From the NCBI GenBank assembly GCA_964468745.1, contig CAYXVY010000079.1:7660-71659 (forward strand): a DNA stretch of 64,000 nt, in the 5' to 3' direction. The notes under the pieces are model-generated. The model had not been told where the DNA came from. It did no database searches and saw nothing but the letters and a program-made list of their open reading frames with translations. The stretch is from an uncultured Planctomycetales bacterium. GTDB lineage: Bacteria; Planctomycetota; MHYJ01; JACPRB01. Positions 36,098-56,011 of this stretch are shown here, in pieces; the first letter of the stretch is position 1; each line of letters opens with the position of its first letter. A program made the translations under genes and the position numbers.

Positions 36098-37540
36098 CTA
36101 ATTCCGAAGTCGATACACCGAGGCGCCCGCATCCTCGTACTCGGGCTGCAGGCCGACCCGCTCGGCGAGCCGGCGATGCCTCGCGCGCAGGATCAGCCAG
36201 TTCGACTTGAAGACGTCTCCCAGCTCCTGTGCGACGAGCGGCCGGCGACCCGCGAGAACCTGCTCGATCAGCTGCAGCTTTTCCTTCGAGCGCACATACA
36301 TGAACATCGAGTCGAGCCCGACGAGATACCGGTGCGTGGGATCAAAATGGAAGAGCTGGACGAAGTCGCCCCACTCGAGGTGGACGACCGTCTCATTGGG
36401 CGGGATGTTCTCCTTCATCCACCGGCAGGCGCCGACCACGTCCGGGCCCGGGTAGTTCTTCACCGCCGTCCGTGCGTTTCCCATCGAGAAGACCGTCAGC
36501 CCGATGAACGCGACCGCCGCCGCCGCGGCCACGCCCGCGCGCGCGCGCGTCCACGCGGTCACCGGCCACAGGTCGCTCGTGACGGACGCTGCCGCGAGAA
36601 GCGCGAGCGGCGCGAAGTACTCGACGAATCGCGAGGACATGCAATAGAGCCCGAAGCCGCCGAGCATGTAGCAGATCATCAGGCGCGAGCGGCGGCTCAA
36701 CGGCATGTCGGCGAGCGCCGTGGCCGCGAGCGTTCCGATGAAGCAGAGGAACGCGCCCGAGGAGGCGAGCGTGAGCGAACGGCCGTCGAACTCGACGCCG
36801 AGCCGCGCGCCGATGTCGCCCCCCAGGCCCCACGCCTGCGTCATGATCTGCACGTTCATGATCCACCACATGTGCAGGTCGTTCGGGAAGTACGGGTGGA
36901 ACAGCAGGCCCCCAACCACGCCCCCCGCCGCCCACGCGACCCCGCGCCATTCAAAGCGACCGTCGACGGCCCGGCGCGCCAGCGCGTCCAGGATCGCAAA
37001 CGCGACGAGAAGATGCGGCGCGGAGTAGCTCCACGAATAGAGGAATCCGACGAGCGCGAGCCACTTCCACCGCGTCGAGAGCATCACGTGAATGCCGAGC
37101 AACAGGAGGAGGAGCGACAGCAGCTGCGGCCGCACGTACTGCAAACGGAAGAGGAAATGGTTGCCGAGCGCCGGCACGAGGGCGATCCAGAGCCACGGCC
37201 AGCGCACCTGGTGCTTCGTGAGGATGAGGAGCAGGACGCCGATCACCGCGCACCCGAGCATCCACGTGAGCCCCTTCGCGCCCGGGATGACCCACGTGCC
37301 GCGGCAGAACGGCGCCAGAAGGACGTGAAAAAGAAACTCCTTGTCGCTGAACCGGTCGCTCCAGACGCTCTCCTGCGCCCACGGGAACTCTCTCGAGAGC
37401 CCGCGCTCGGGCATCAGCTGCGCGTAGCGGGCGTGGTAGTAGCTGTCGCGGTCCACGAGGTGGTCGGTGCCGAACTGGAGCACCGCCAGGGCGATGAAGG
37501 CCCAGAGCGCGGCGCCTTGAGCGAGAAACCAGCGCGACAT
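36098..37540 (-). CDS. Polytopic integral membrane protein, possibly a GT-C-type glycosyltransferase (ArnT/PMT-like)
   Basis: At least 11 predicted TM helices, a DxD/ExD-containing first loop (LVDRDSYYHARY) and a ~100-aa soluble C-terminal domain. Family not assignable from sequence alone. Confidence 0.6.
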   Translation of the reverse strand: MSRWFLAQGAALWAFIALAVLQFGTDHLVDRDSYYHARYAQLMPERGLSREFPWAQESVWSDRFSDKEFLFHVLLAPFCRGTWVIPGAKGLTWMLGCAVIGVLLLILTKHQVRWPWLWIALVPALGNHFLFRLQYVRPQLLSLLLLLLGIHVMLSTRWKWLALVGFLYSWSYSAPHLLVAFAILDALARRAVDGRFEWRGVAWAAGGVVGGLLFHPYFPNDLHMWWIMNVQIMTQAWGLGGDIGARLGVEFDGRSLTLASSGAFLCFIGTLAATALADMPLSRRSRLMICYMLGGFGLYCMSSRFVEYFAPLALLAAASVTSDLWPVTAWTRARAGVAAAAAVAFIGLTVFSMGNARTAVKNYPGPDVVGACRWMKENIPPNETVVHLEWGDFVQLFHFDPTHRYLVGLDSMFMYVRSKEKLQLIEQVLAGRRPLVAQELGDVFKSNWLILRARHRRLAERVGLQPEYEDAGASVYRLRN

Positions 37541-37625
37541 GCTAGCTCAATCGCATATAGCGGATAGCACATAGCAAATCGGCCGGAATCGATCTGCTAT
37601 CTGGTCTCTGCTATCTGCGATTCCT
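37541..37625 (-). promoter_or_regulatory. Low-GC, repeat-rich intergenic region upstream of the membrane-protein gene: three ATAGC direct repeats facing two GCTAT inverse copies, plus a GCTAGC palindrome
   Basis: Read directly: gctagctcaatcgcatATAGCggATAGCacATAGCaaatcggccggaatcgatctGCTATctggtctctGCTATctgcg. GC content is far below the window average. Confidence 0.4.
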
Positions 37626-53381: not shown

Positions 53382-56011
53382 GGATTCGATTGTACGAGTT
53401 CGCGGCAGCGAGTGAGGTGTTCCCTCGCCTGCTTGTGCGACGGATTGAGTTTCAGCGCTTCGTCGTAGTCCTTGATCGCCTTCCTCGGCTCCTGTGCCAG
53501 TTCGAAGGCAAGCCCACGCGTGTAGTGCGCGCCCGCCTCGTCGCCGTCGCACTCGATCCCCTTGTCGATGTGGGGTATCGCTTCGCCGAATCGCTTCCTT
53601 GCCAACTCAACGTATCCCAGTCCAAGCCACGCCTCGGCGGCGCGCGGATTACGTTTGATGGCCTCGCGGAAGTCTGCCTCCACCGGATCGAGATTCTGGA
53701 TCGCCTGCTCCCGCATCTGGCTCCCGCGTGTCTGCGCGCGCTTCGACCAGATCTCCGCCCGTTCCGGCGCAAGCTTCAGGGCCTCTTCGAAGTCGCCGTA
53801 GGCTCCGTTGAAATTGCTCCGCGCTGCATGCGCCATCGCTCGCCACATCCACGGGTCTGGCTCCGATTTTCCACGCTTCACCGCTTCGTCCAGGTCGGTG
53901 ACCGCCTTGGCGAAAAGCACGTCTGCCTTGTCGCCGAGCGACTGCCTGTTCCTCGCGTGCGCAAAAGTCGCGATTCCGCGGTACATCCACGCTTCCGCGC
54001 CGGCGCCGTTCCGCGCAACGGCCACGTCGAGGTCCGCCAGCGCGTCCTCGTACCCGCGTCCCGCATCTTCGCCCCGCTGGCTGCGCGCGGTTGCCAGCGC
54101 CACCGTCGCCACGCCCCGCCACATGCGGGCATCAGCCTTTCCCCAATCCTCGATGGCCTTCGCATACCCGGACCGCGGATCGACGCCGCGCTTCGCCATG
54201 AAATGCGCCGTCAGGAAATGCGCCATGCCGCGACGCTTAACCGCTTCCGTCCGACCGGGCGCCTTCGCAAGCGCCTCCTCGCAGTCCTTGAGCGCCGCAT
54301 CGAAGAGAGCCGTTGGATCCTCCCCTCGTCCAGCCCGATCCATGCCGAGCGTGAGCCTCGCGATCGCGCGACCCTCGAAGTACGGCACGAATCCGAGGTC
54401 CCGTGCGATCCCTTCCGTGAAGCAGGTGATCGACTCATCGAAGCGCCGCTCGTCGAGAGCGATGAGGGCCAGGCCCGAGATCGCCTCCTCGAGATCAGGC
54501 GATTTCGAGCGCGCTGCCGTGAGCAGCTCCTTCGCTTTGTTCGAATCGCCCGCAAGCCAGGCAAGGGTGCCCTGGACGATGTCGCGTCGCGCGCCATCGC
54601 CGCCGAACATCGCCGCATCCGATTCGATCGCCGCGCGCAGCTTTCGCGCCGGATCGTCAGCATCGCGCGCGCGAAACTCCAGCGTGCTCAGGTCTTCGAG
54701 TCGCTGGCGATAGAGCCCGACCGTGAGGACGATGCGTTCGTATCGCGCTCCCGCGTGACCCGCATCGCGGTCCAGCGCAAGATTCTGCTCATGTCGCGCA
54801 CCGTCGTCGTCCATCAGGGCGCGCCGCATGCGGCCGAGAAGATAGTGAGGCTCAGCAATGTCAGGGTCGCGGGCGATCGCTTCCCGACACGTTTCGTCTG
54901 TCTCCTTCGAGAAGGTCTGCATCGAGTCGAGCCGCCCGGCGCGACGCAGTTCGAGCGCCGCCTTGAGCGCGGTGTCGGCGCGACGCTGGAGCTGCGTGAC
55001 GTCGTCGCCACACGAGCGTGCGATGAGAGCGGCGGTCGTCGCGAGCACGAGCGCACCGAGCCCTCCGGAGACGACTCCCTTGCGCCGGGCCACGGACCGG
55101 CTCAGGCGGTACGCGAGGGTCGGGGGACGCGCTGCAATGGGCTCGCGCCGGCGGAACCGCGCCAGGTCCGCGGCGAATTCCTTCGCGCTCGGATAGCGCC
55201 GCGATGTGTCCTTCTCAAGCGCCTTGAGGCAGATGATCTCGAGATCGCGCGGCACGTTTGCGGCGCGCGCACCCGGGCGCATCGGCTGCTCGCTCGAGAT
55301 CTGGCGATAGAGTTCCGCGGGGTTGCTCTCGTTGAACGGGATCGAGCCCGTGAGGATCTCGTAGAGGACGACGCCGAGCGCCCAGACATCGGTGACGGGC
55401 CCCATTTGTGTCGGGTCGCCGTGCACCTGCTCGGGCGCCATGTACGCGGGCGTCCCAAGACGCGTGTTCTGCTGCATCAGGGTCGTCATCGCCTGCGCGC
55501 GCGCGAGTCCGAAGTCGCTCAGGAATGCGCGGCCGTTCGCGTCCACCAGCACGTTGCCGGGCTTGATGTCGCGGTGCACGACCCCCTTCGAGTGCGCAAA
55601 CTCCGTCGCTGCGGCGACCTGCTCAAGAATGTCGAGCAGCCGCTCGCGCGTCTCGGTGCGGGCGGCGAGGATTTCGCTCAACGTGCGCCCGTCGACAAAG
55701 TCCATCGCGAGATAATGCACGGGCATCACGCCGTCGTGCGCCTGCCCGGCGTCGTGCACCGCGACGATATTGGGATGACGCAGTTGCGCGGCGATGCGCG
55801 CTTCGCGGAGGAACTGCTCGGCATTCTCGACCTGGCGCACCACTTTGAGGGCGACGCGCCGCCGCAGCTCAAGGTCCTGCGCTTCGTAGACGACCGCCAT
55901 GCCCCCGCGCCCCGCTTCGCGTCCGAGCACGTATTTCCCCAGACGCCGGCGTTCGCCGCCGAGGATGGCAGCCTTCACGCGATCGTACCCCTGGGGCGAG
56001 ATACCCGGCAT
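53378..56011 (-). CDS. Ser/Thr protein kinase fused to TM and TPR-repeat domains
   Basis: Kinase motifs GRGGMAVVYEA, HRDIKPGNVLVD, DFGLAR, GTPAYMAPE; TM helix GGLGALVLATTAALIA; C-terminal TPR repeats. Translationally coupled to the histidine kinase gene downstream. Confidence 0.85.
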   Translation of the reverse strand: MPGISPQGYDRVKAAILGGERRRLGKYVLGREAGRGGMAVVYEAQDLELRRRVALKVVRQVENAEQFLREARIAAQLRHPNIVAVHDAGQAHDGVMPVHYLAMDFVDGRTLSEILAARTETRERLLDILEQVAAATEFAHSKGVVHRDIKPGNVLVDANGRAFLSDFGLARAQAMTTLMQQNTRLGTPAYMAPEQVHGDPTQMGPVTDVWALGVVLYEILTGSIPFNESNPAELYRQISSEQPMRPGARAANVPRDLEIICLKALEKDTSRRYPSAKEFAADLARFRRREPIAARPPTLAYRLSRSVARRKGVVSGGLGALVLATTAALIARSCGDDVTQLQRRADTALKAALELRRAGRLDSMQTFSKETDETCREAIARDPDIAEPHYLLGRMRRALMDDDGARHEQNLALDRDAGHAGARYERIVLTVGLYRQRLEDLSTLEFRARDADDPARKLRAAIESDAAMFGGDGARRDIVQGTLAWLAGDSNKAKELLTAARSKSPDLEEAISGLALIALDERRFDESITCFTEGIARDLGFVPYFEGRAIARLTLGMDRAGRGEDPTALFDAALKDCEEALAKAPGRTEAVKRRGMAHFLTAHFMAKRGVDPRSGYAKAIEDWGKADARMWRGVATVALATARSQRGEDAGRGYEDALADLDVAVARNGAGAEAWMYRGIATFAHARNRQSLGDKADVLFAKAVTDLDEAVKRGKSEPDPWMWRAMAHAARSNFNGAYGDFEEALKLAPERAEIWSKRAQTRGSQMREQAIQNLDPVEADFREAIKRNPRAAEAWLGLGYVELARKRFGEAIPHIDKGIECDGDEAGAHYTRGLAFELAQEPRKAIKDYDEALKLNPSHKQAREHLTRCRELVQSNP

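Follow-up and report, generated by a model that had tools for sequence, protein, structure and literature searches.

A conserved sigma-54-linked ExbBD gene island of an uncultured Planctomycetota lineage encodes a candidate membrane-anchored force transducer

Gene content and layout of the island

The window analysed here is a 64,000-nucleotide stretch of DNA from an uncultured Planctomycetales bacterium (positions 7,660 to 71,659 of contig CAYXVY010000079.1, assembly GCA_964468745.1), and its subject is a gene island in which an ExbB gene and two ExbD genes stand together with a two-component system, a sigma-54 promoter and a membrane-anchored protein, G, that may act as their force transducer. 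The island is an unbroken row of 15 minus-strand genes running from 56011 down to 36098, as read from the open reading frame (ORF) listing and from codon-position GC. GC at third codon positions is 0.76-0.90 in the island genes, and the GC content of the window is about 65%. The genes, lettered from the 5' end of the block, are the following.

53378-56011, minus strand: A, receptor Ser/Thr kinase of 877 amino acids (aa), with a Pkinase domain, a transmembrane segment at aa 313-331 and a periplasmic TPR region
51306-53381, minus strand: B, sensor histidine kinase, 691 aa, with HAMP, HisKA and HATPase_c domains
50262-50999, minus strand: C, ExbB/TolQ-type proton channel, 245 aa (PF01618)
49714-50250, minus strand: D, ExbD/TolR paralog 1, 178 aa (PF02472)
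49225-49701, minus strand: E, ExbD/TolR paralog 2, 158 aa (PF02472)
48348-49169, minus strand: F, 273 aa, no family; a periplasmic OB-fold between two transmembrane segments
46654-48333, minus strand: G, 559 aa; transmembrane anchor, Gly-rich linker and alpha/alpha toroid (PF13243)
43766-46624, minus strand: H, secreted TPR-like protein, 952 aa, with weak TPR matches
42346-43719, minus strand: I, NtrC-type enhancer-binding response regulator, 457 aa, with REC, AAA+ and HTH_8 domains
41061-42182, minus strand: J, bitopic protein, 373 aa, no family; paralog of K
40123-41064, minus strand: K, bitopic protein, 313 aa; paralog of J
39008-40126, minus strand: L, periplasmic TPR protein, about 372 aa, with sub-threshold TPR matches; related to H
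38078-39001, minus strand: M, bitopic protein, 307 aa, no family
37626-38057, minus strand: N, zinc ribbon, transmembrane segment and six-CxxC domain, 143 aa, with sub-cut-off matches
36098-37540, minus strand: O, GT-C-fold membrane protein, 480 aa, assigned from an AlphaFold2 (AF2) model and PDB fold matches

An earlier note on this DNA, made from its letters alone, had described the same head-to-tail row with its overlapping junctions, and the ORF listing and a reading of each junction agree with it: ATGA overlaps lie at 53378-53381 and 41061-41064, and a GTGA overlap at 40123-40126. The remaining intergenic gaps measure 6-85 nt, except for the spacer between the histidine kinase gene and exbB (306 nt, counted to the ATG at 50999) and the one between the NtrC gene and J (163 nt). 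At its 3' end the block converges with a plus-strand ORF (35195-36058), and at its 5' start it diverges from plus-strand genes that begin at 55899 and continue onwards. Pfam matches support the note's calls of an ExbB-ExbD-ExbD module, a histidine kinase, a Ser/Thr kinase and an NtrC-family regulator. Its inventory passed directly from that module to the NtrC gene and so missed F, G and H (43766-49169, 5.4 kb), three genes that belong to the core of the island.

Conservation in related Planctomycetota

With random orientation, 15 same-strand genes in a row would have a probability of about 2^-14; beyond this figure, the grouping is taken to be more than chance chiefly because its gene order is kept in other genomes. 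Through the G-family alignment we fetched 75 loci from species-representative genomes, and further loci came from exact-protein look-ups and from a metagenome scan centred on K. The window proteins were mapped onto the fetched loci by tblastn, which gave the following arrangements (L numbers denote loci).

L076: NtrC and histidine kinase genes (NtrC<-HK) divergent from exbB-exbD-exbD-F-G-H-J-K-L-M-N-O; all 12 matched, at 30-78% identity
L080 and L083: histidine kinase, then exbB through H-J-K-L-M-N, then NtrC; same order through N
L003 and L085-L089: shorter contigs, colinear over the stretch that each contig covers
L011-L014 and L060: exbB-(exbD)2-4-F-G-H-HK-NtrC and then another G paralog (L060, a short contig, does not show it); J-N lacking
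L043, L018, L055 and L075: core permuted to G-H-exbB-exbD-exbD-F

From ExbB to N the genes are colinear in every related locus that reaches far enough (L076, L080, L003, L083-L089), in line with the earlier proposal that the block is a functional unit and not a chance grouping. The same proposal had named, as the observation that would count against it, the occurrence of the unfamiliar genes apart from the ExbBD genes in related genomes; for J-N the opposite was found, all seven K-containing loci of the K-centred scan keeping the cluster order. The motor genes stay linked to F, G and H in the permuted clusters as well, with G identity as low as 36-40%. Histidine kinase and NtrC genes accompany the cluster wherever the flanks are long enough, although their positions shift, and histidine kinase orthologs stand beside every complete cluster.

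These distributions suggest that the island is built in three layers. The first is a wide core of the motor, F, G and H together with the histidine kinase and NtrC genes, to which the sigma-54 promoter belongs in the two nearer clades; the second is a clade-specific extension, J-N; and the third is the peripheral gene O.

The sigma-54 promoter and the two-component switch

Two regulatory elements lie in the 306-nt spacer upstream of exbB.

51102-51116, minus strand: sigma-54 -24/-12 promoter TGGCATTCCCTTTGC; the exbB ATG follows 103 nt downstream
51176-51192: candidate enhancer, or upstream activating sequence (UAS), a perfect palindrome TGTGGC-N5-GCCACA (GTGTGGCGTTTTGCCACAC when extended) that precedes the -24 element by about 75 nt

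TGGCATTCCCTTTGC is the sole intergenic, correctly oriented match to the sigma-54 -24/-12 consensus with at most one mismatch in the 64 kb window, and the exact palindrome TGTGGC-N5-GCCACA occurs there once. A -24/-12 element is found upstream of exbB in 10 loci (the window, L001, L002, L076, L080 and L011-L015), which span two clades with G identities of 73-79% and about 59%; the promoter that the earlier note had placed before exbB is thus real and conserved in related loci. In eight of these 10 loci the palindrome precedes the sigma-54 element by 65-150 nt, with at most one mismatch in L002, L076, L080 and L011-L013 and two mismatches in L001, and it is lacking in L014 and L015. Across the 81 fetched loci (about 1.2 Mb), the exact palindrome is confined to these sites upstream of exbB. 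Judged by sequence, the arrangement of promoter and palindrome is the classic site layout of an enhancer-binding protein, and the natural candidate for its binder would be the activator of the cluster itself, protein I.

The histidine kinase B consists of a transmembrane segment, an internally repeated periplasmic domain of about 290 aa, a second transmembrane segment and HAMP, HisKA and HATPase_c domains (Pfam and transmembrane scan), and its orthologs, at 51-53% identity, adjoin the cluster in L076 and L080. Activator I matches Sigma54_activat at 1.2e-67, as well as REC and HTH_8 at 5.6e-29 and 2.3e-14, and has orthologs of 64-68% identity that are placed differently in L076 and L080. In L076 the histidine kinase and NtrC genes overlap by 4 nt. 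It is well supported that B and I form a two-component switch, which would act through the palindrome on the sigma-54 promoter of the exbB operon. Such a switch shares with NtrB/NtrC and ZraS/ZraR a HAMP-HisKA-HATPase kinase and a REC-AAA+-HTH_8 activator. A GG-N10-GC promoter preceded at 65-150 nt by a palindromic enhancer is likewise common to them, and so would be autoregulation. It differs from them in its target, an ExbBD machine operon, and, in the clade of the window, in the loop with which the activator contacts sigma-54.

In this L1 loop (codons 229-234; 43018-43035, minus strand), GAHSTA takes the place of GAFTGA. GAHSTA is kept in the activator orthologs of L076, L080, L088 and L089, and in the more distant clade (L011-14, L060) the loop is GSFTGA or GSFTGS. 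The GAHSTA activators co-occur with canonical, conserved -24/-12 promoters. GAFTGA is usually held to be essential, and a regulon survey treats it as invariant and filters by it (PMC12316311).

The scans of the 163-nt gap between NtrC and J revealed no second sigma-54 promoter or UAS, a sigma-70 promoter scan gave 0 matches, and every candidate from an intrinsic-terminator scan fell inside a gene or on the wrong strand, which makes that scan uninformative.

In L001 (4374-5835) and L002 (4427-6876), a second pair of UAS and sigma-54 promoter precedes a 427-aa protein with a zinc ribbon, a transmembrane segment and a HEAT-like domain. The gene of this protein precedes the exbB promoter in both loci; in L006, a homolog stands ahead of a G paralog. 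In L076 (7109-7270), an ORF for a small transmembrane peptide of about 50 aa lies between promoter and exbB, and L001 and L002 have similar coding space; the window and L080, where promoter and exbB are only about 100-115 nt apart, lack this small ORF.

The motor and its partner F

ExbB (C) matches MotA_ExbB (PF01618) at 8e-25, above the cut-off. Against the NCBIfam exbB/tolQ equivalogs it scores far below the cut-offs, the best being TolQ, so that its membership holds at the family level only. The protein has a cleavable signal peptide and orthologs of 64-73% identity; its revised start is the ATG at 50999, which a GGAGGA ribosome-binding site precedes. Both ExbD proteins match PF02472 (D at 1.5e-18, E at 6.3e-15) and carry the transmembrane Asp, in LVPMIDIMF in D and in VTAMVDIIF in E. 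Since the two are paralogs of only 27% identity (BLASTP 9.6e-10), a heterodimeric ExbD plug is implied.

F, with its OB-fold held between two transmembrane segments, is a core partner of the motor. Like J, K, M and O, it has no Pfam or NCBIfam family even at E = 10. Among the 15 cluster proteins, no TonB_C match was found in Pfam and no TolB, Pal, ZraP or PspA homolog in Pfam or NCBIfam; the cluster proteins likewise gave no Pfam match to Plug or TonB_dep_Rec, a search that covered the cluster only.

Protein G

G is anchored by a transmembrane segment of the form NxPWWxxSxxxH (aa 34-57), followed by a conserved juxtamembrane segment, a Gly-rich linker and a toroid at aa ~195-559. Across 15 sequences of 60-84% identity, residues N34, P36, W37, W38, S41 and H45 of the anchor are invariant, and the Ser/His pair is kept in 52 of 53 diverse cluster representatives. 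TonB carries the motif P-W-x4-S16-x3-H20 and TolA the motif S18-x3-H22, and both proteins bind their motor through this Ser/His transmembrane helix. The motor-binding motif of the TonB and TolA helices has been described as SHLS, S-x3-H-x6-L-x3-S (PMC12204202). In its sequence, the Ser-x3-His anchor of G resembles these motifs, and we infer that G may be a force transducer that docks on the motor and transmits its force.

The toroid matches PF13243 at 1.1e-9, and a remote PDB match to squalene-hopene cyclase (SHC; E 1.8e-5) covers residues ~275-366 only. G scores 32.9 bits against the squalene cyclase model TIGR01787 (cut-off 322.7) and 22.5 bits against TIGR01507 (cut-off 431.1), and no full DxDD motif is present in an alignment made by eye, where the region reads GDNDT, with Asn at the catalytic-acid position. 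A real terpene cyclase was considered and rejected, since the scores fall far short of the thresholds of the family and the toroid head is tethered to the membrane on its periplasmic side. The toroid is rich in invariant residues, both polar and aromatic ones and pairs of Cys, and G has no VWA match. A literature search found neither a description of the cluster nor a link of squalene-cyclase-like domains to ExbBD.

The family is large, with more than 2000 homologs and several paralogs per metagenome-assembled genome (MAG), often in tandem. The names of homologs and the genome scan assign the window to an uncultured Planctomycetota lineage with MAGs from soil and groundwater. Many solo paralogs keep the anchor motif, for instance P0008 and P0021, which fits several transducers per motor, as multiple TonBs share one motor. 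In relatives of the N-terminal module (P0340, P0354, P0210, P0286, P0231), the transmembrane segment, linker and toroid are fused to zf-HC2, Ser/Thr-kinase, VIT plus VWA or Agenet/Tudor domains, so that the use of this module evidently extends to signalling proteins. Where a cytoplasmic zf-HC2 or Pkinase domain lies N-terminal to the transmembrane segment, the architecture argues for an N-in/C-out topology.

Periplasmic and bitopic partners

Inside the clusters, H always follows G. It has a signal peptide ending in AxA|Q, as its orthologs have signal peptides, and scores 23.9 bits against the CpoB/YbgF model TIGR02795, below the cut-off of 90.1. L is distantly related to H (hhalign 91%) and has a small N-terminal beta domain; the signal peptides of its orthologs are cleavable.

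J, K and M share one architecture, with a basic, Thr-rich cytoplasmic tail (T/Q-rich in J), a single transmembrane segment and a periplasmic helical domain. BLASTP gave no matches among the three, and only profile comparison exposed the homology of J and K (hhalign 98.5%, E 3.4e-15); M shows no detectable homology to either by hhalign despite its like architecture, and has orthologs in L076, L080, L088 and L089. Where the earlier note had counted four orphan coiled-coil membrane proteins, three are thus bitopic, namely the paralogs J and K and the unrelated M, while the fourth, L, is a secreted TPR protein akin to H.

In the orthologs of J, TQR repeats come after an N-terminal FHA domain, which was seen by Pfam in L080 (14714-16030) and in the sequence in L076 (14733-16196) and L003 (4461-5810). 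In the window (region 41061-42345), J starts past the FHA position, with a GTG behind AAGGAGG, exactly at the site where the NtrC gene is inserted between H and J, and no FHA remnant was found anywhere in the window.

N has an N-terminal zinc ribbon, a transmembrane segment and a C-terminal domain with six CxxC motifs that resembles DnaJ-CxxCxGxG; all Zn_ribbon and DnaJ_CXXCXGXG matches are below their cut-offs, and orthologs are 41-45% identical. The Cys-rich domain is predicted to be periplasmic if the K-rich segment before the transmembrane helix is cytoplasmic. The periplasm is an unusual place for a DnaJ-type Cys-rich module.

Peripheral members and neighbouring genes

The AF2 model of O (pLDDT 92, pTM 0.91) confirms the predicted GT-C fold, its top 26 PDB matches all being GT-C enzymes (probability 1.00, TMq 0.52-0.67), among them STT3/AglB/PglB, DPY19, ArnT, ALG9/12 and AftD. 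By sequence, O stands outside the described GT-C families (PMT, STT3, ArnT and others), with no Pfam or NCBIfam match at E = 10. Residues D32 and H36 are invariant in a 'DRDxYYH' segment after the first transmembrane helix and are candidates for a counterpart of the catalytic DxD/ExD that GT-C enzymes carry in the first extracytoplasmic loop. O belongs to the cluster in L076, is absent from the L080-type clusters and is solitary, at 44% identity, in the more distant genome of L082, and it is therefore a peripheral, clade-specific member; the GT-C character that the earlier note had given it holds for the fold, whereas its place in the island does not extend to L080-type clusters.

Kinase A (Pkinase 1.9e-47, plus TPR) is joined to the histidine kinase gene in the window by an ATGA overlap, indicative of translational coupling, and is absent beside the cluster in L076, L080, L001 and L002. 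Its adjacency counts for little, because the 64 kb window contains four Ser/Thr kinase genes, at 2707-4866 (plus strand), 9564-13556 (plus strand), 53378-56011 (minus strand, A itself) and 56817-59579 (plus strand), the last being a divergently transcribed, full-length kinase-TPR paralog of A with 38.6% identity over 913 aligned columns. As a core component, A was rejected on both grounds, its lack of conservation beside the cluster and the local abundance of such kinases. Of the three signalling layers proposed in the earlier note, the histidine kinase and the sigma-54 activator have held up, and the Hanks kinase as a conserved member has not. The window combines a Ser/Thr kinase with a J that lacks FHA; L076, L080 and L003 have an FHA-bearing J, and L076 and L080 no adjacent Ser/Thr kinase.

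The plus-strand ORF that converges with O (35195-36058) has by eye the look of an ECF-type sigma factor, with region-2-like and region-4-like parts, and no Pfam match at E<=0.001. Farther away, at 31454-33728 on the plus strand, an EgtD-like histidine methyltransferase gene (PF10017 3e-106) followed by one for an EgtB-like protein with DinB_2 and FGE-sulfatase domains looks like a pair for ergothioneine biosynthesis, unrelated to the cluster.

A Ton/Tol-type machine and its possible mechanism

We read the region as an inducible, proton-motive-force-driven (PMF-driven) trans-envelope machine of the Ton/Tol type, specific to an uncultured Planctomycetota lineage, in which an ExbB/ExbD motor has about ten partner proteins in the envelope and G is the transducer, and give this reading a probability of roughly 0.55. 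In such a machine, histidine kinase B would sense a periplasmic signal and phosphorylate activator I, which would bind TGTGGC-N5-GCCACA and, from about 75 nt upstream, open the sigma-54 promoter. A single long transcript would then extend from exbB through the machine genes, and the position of the activator gene inside its own operon would, in this genome, provide positive feedback. ExbB and an ExbD1/ExbD2 heterodimer would form a 5:2-type stator, on which G would dock through its Ser-x3-His helix, so that a pulling force could pass along the Gly-rich linker to the toroid head. In the periplasm the head may act jointly with three further proteins of the island: H, a secreted TPR protein of giant size, F with its OB-fold, and L, also a TPR protein.

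J, K and M could serve as periplasmic struts anchored in the inner membrane, whose Thr-rich tails, preceded by FHA in orthologs, would take a phospho-threonine input; we propose this input because the J orthologs carry FHA domains and because the tails of all three proteins are Thr-rich. In this genome, kinase A may supply the phospho-threonine signal to the tails. N and the GT-C protein O would be accessory. Gene content, gene order, the conserved promoter and enhancer, the folds of O and F and the invariant anchor motif are shown by the data, and from them we infer the contact between G and the motor, the transduction of force and the link from kinase to tail.

Several features of the island weigh against this reading. 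Only the S and H of SHLS are kept in G, where the L at +7 is A or M and the S at +11 is Y or A, and the linker is Gly-rich and flexible rather than Pro-rich or helical. ExbB/D genes lie within the fetched flanks in only 12 of the 75 G-family loci, and the relatives of G on anti-sigma zf-HC2 or kinase proteins suggest that the toroid could be a ligand-sensing domain. The cluster encodes no outer-membrane partner, be it a TonB-dependent transporter, Pal or TolB. On the regulatory side, GAHSTA departs from the canonical sigma-54 contact motif GAFTGA, and the 163-nt gap between NtrC and J could hold a separate promoter.

Relation to known motor-driven systems

With the Ton system, the cluster has in common ExbB and ExbD with the transmembrane Asp, a single-pass partner with P-W...S-x3-H and possibly several transducers that share motors. 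Unlike Ton, it has neither a TonB C-terminal domain nor a Pro-rich spacer nor a TonB-dependent outer-membrane transporter; it has two different ExbD proteins, and its control is by sigma-54 instead of the usual Fur type. With Tol-Pal it shares a TolQ/TolR-like motor, a partner anchored by S-x3-H and a periplasmic TPR protein that faintly resembles YbgF/CpoB, whereas the TolB beta-propeller and Pal are lacking, many components are added, and an inducible system stands in place of a housekeeping one.

The Agl-Glt gliding and Nfs machinery of Myxococcus resembles the island in that it combines a TolQR-type motor with TonB-like bitopic proteins, periplasmic TPR proteins and a zinc-ribbon bitopic component in a trans-envelope complex that is not a transporter. 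It belongs to a different phylum, and outer-membrane beta-barrel genes are not present in this cluster; no sequence homology to Glt or Nfs proteins was seen, though no search was aimed at it.

In the literature, the closest concept is that of vWA force transducers, described in PVC bacteria and elsewhere, in which a TPR gene, tolQ, two tolR genes and an SHLS-anchored vWA protein stand together (Mol Biol Evol 2025, PMC12204202). These systems and the island both have a TPR gene (H in the island), an exbB/tolQ-like gene (C) and a heterologous exbD/tolR pair (D and E), both occur in Planctomycetes, and in both a bitopic protein carries a Ser/His transmembrane segment, a disordered linker and a globular head that is not that of TonB. 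The head is a vWA domain in the published systems and a squalene-cyclase-like alpha/alpha toroid in G, and the present cluster adds F, J/K/M, L, N, O and the switch of histidine kinase, NtrC and sigma-54 promoter, together with a G family that is massively paralogous. The cluster is in this sense a variation on known Ton/Tol-like, motor-driven envelope systems.

In L076 (982-2421, minus strand) and L001 (409-2118, minus strand), the cluster is preceded at a few kb by a gene for a secreted vWA-domain protein, which may matter given the published vWA transducers. The window contains no homolog of these vWA neighbours in L001, L002 and L076, nor of the zinc-ribbon-HEAT protein described above.

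Alternative explanations

If the island is real and G is not a transducer, G could instead bind a ligand or sense a signal in the periplasm, or be an enzyme, with ExbBD energising F, J/K, M or an unlinked TonB and the toroid binding a glycan or isoprenoid, for instance in nutrient scavenging or trans-envelope signalling. Relatives in which the cytoplasmic side of the same module bears an anti-sigma zf-HC2 or a Ser/Thr-kinase domain, and others with VIT-VWA or Tudor/Agenet, have the architecture of sensors; most G paralogs lie away from a motor, the linker is flexible, and the invariant polar and aromatic residues and Cys pairs of the toroid are consistent with a binding pocket. A plain anchor or sensor transmembrane segment, however, needs no invariant polar Ser-x3-His face across hundreds of paralogs, and the cluster offers no other protein with a TonB-like or ExbD-like transmembrane segment, nor a TonB_C domain. 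For an enzyme, the 22-33 bits against squalene cyclase cut-offs of 322-431 and the by-eye reading of the DxDD region as G-D-N-D-T argue to the contrary. We regard this explanation of G as rather unlikely.

An envelope-stress or maintenance module of the Zra/Psp or Tol-Pal kind, in which a stress-sensing pair of histidine kinase and NtrC would switch on a TolQR-like motor along with periplasmic proteins (TPR proteins and chaperone-like ones with CxxC motifs) and a GT-C enzyme, so as to repair or remodel the outer envelope, appears improbable. Control by histidine kinase, NtrC and sigma-54 does resemble ZraSR, and ZraR-like regulators have been noted in Planctomycetota (PMC12316311). The weak YbgF/CpoB match of H, the DnaJ-type CxxCxGxG domain of N with its predicted periplasmic location and the membership of O in a class that modifies envelope lipids or glycans, as ArnT does, would all suit such a role. 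Nevertheless, none of the 15 proteins is a TolB, Pal, ZraP or PspA homolog, the YbgF score of H is 23.9 bits where 90.1 are called for, and O and N are the least conserved members.

That a Ser/Thr kinase, a histidine kinase, a Ton motor operon, an NtrC gene and unfamiliar genes merely share a strand could appeal to the unconserved kinase, the occurrence of O alone elsewhere, the varying placement of NtrC and the 306-nt and 163-nt gaps, which could part transcription units, but is very improbable and largely refuted for exbB to N with the histidine kinase and NtrC genes, given 11-12 colinear genes in independent MAGs at 30-78% protein identity, two regulators that stay beside the cluster despite rearrangement, a UAS and sigma-54 promoter kept across two clades, and K-containing loci that are cluster loci in seven cases out of seven.

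Meaning for the Planctomycetota envelope

The reading of the island as a Ton/Tol-type machine can be widened to the G family as a whole, which would then be a new and highly expanded class of PMF force transducers working on ExbB-ExbD1-ExbD2 stators and, with giant TPR partners, powering a Planctomycetota-specific envelope process, while bacterial enhancer-binding proteins with GAHSTA would drive canonical -24/-12 promoters. We put this wider claim forward tentatively, as a possibility and no firm expectation. If it is true, the process might be a capture or import of macromolecules independent of TonB receptors, or surface movement.

For sigma-54 regulation, conserved GAHSTA activators beside conserved sigma-54 promoters challenge the use of GAFTGA as a strict filter, and since at least one regulon survey filters by this motif (PMC12316311), such surveys may miss whole regulons.

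The envelope of Planctomycetota is unusual, and how processes at or beyond its outer membrane are energised is poorly understood, for which the operon described here offers a genetic entry point. It would couple a 5:2-type ExbBD motor to a non-TonB, transducer-like family of thousands of members, under an inducible switch with a known cis-element, and would thereby extend the recent proposal that ExbB/TolQ motors drive many clients beyond TonB and TolA.

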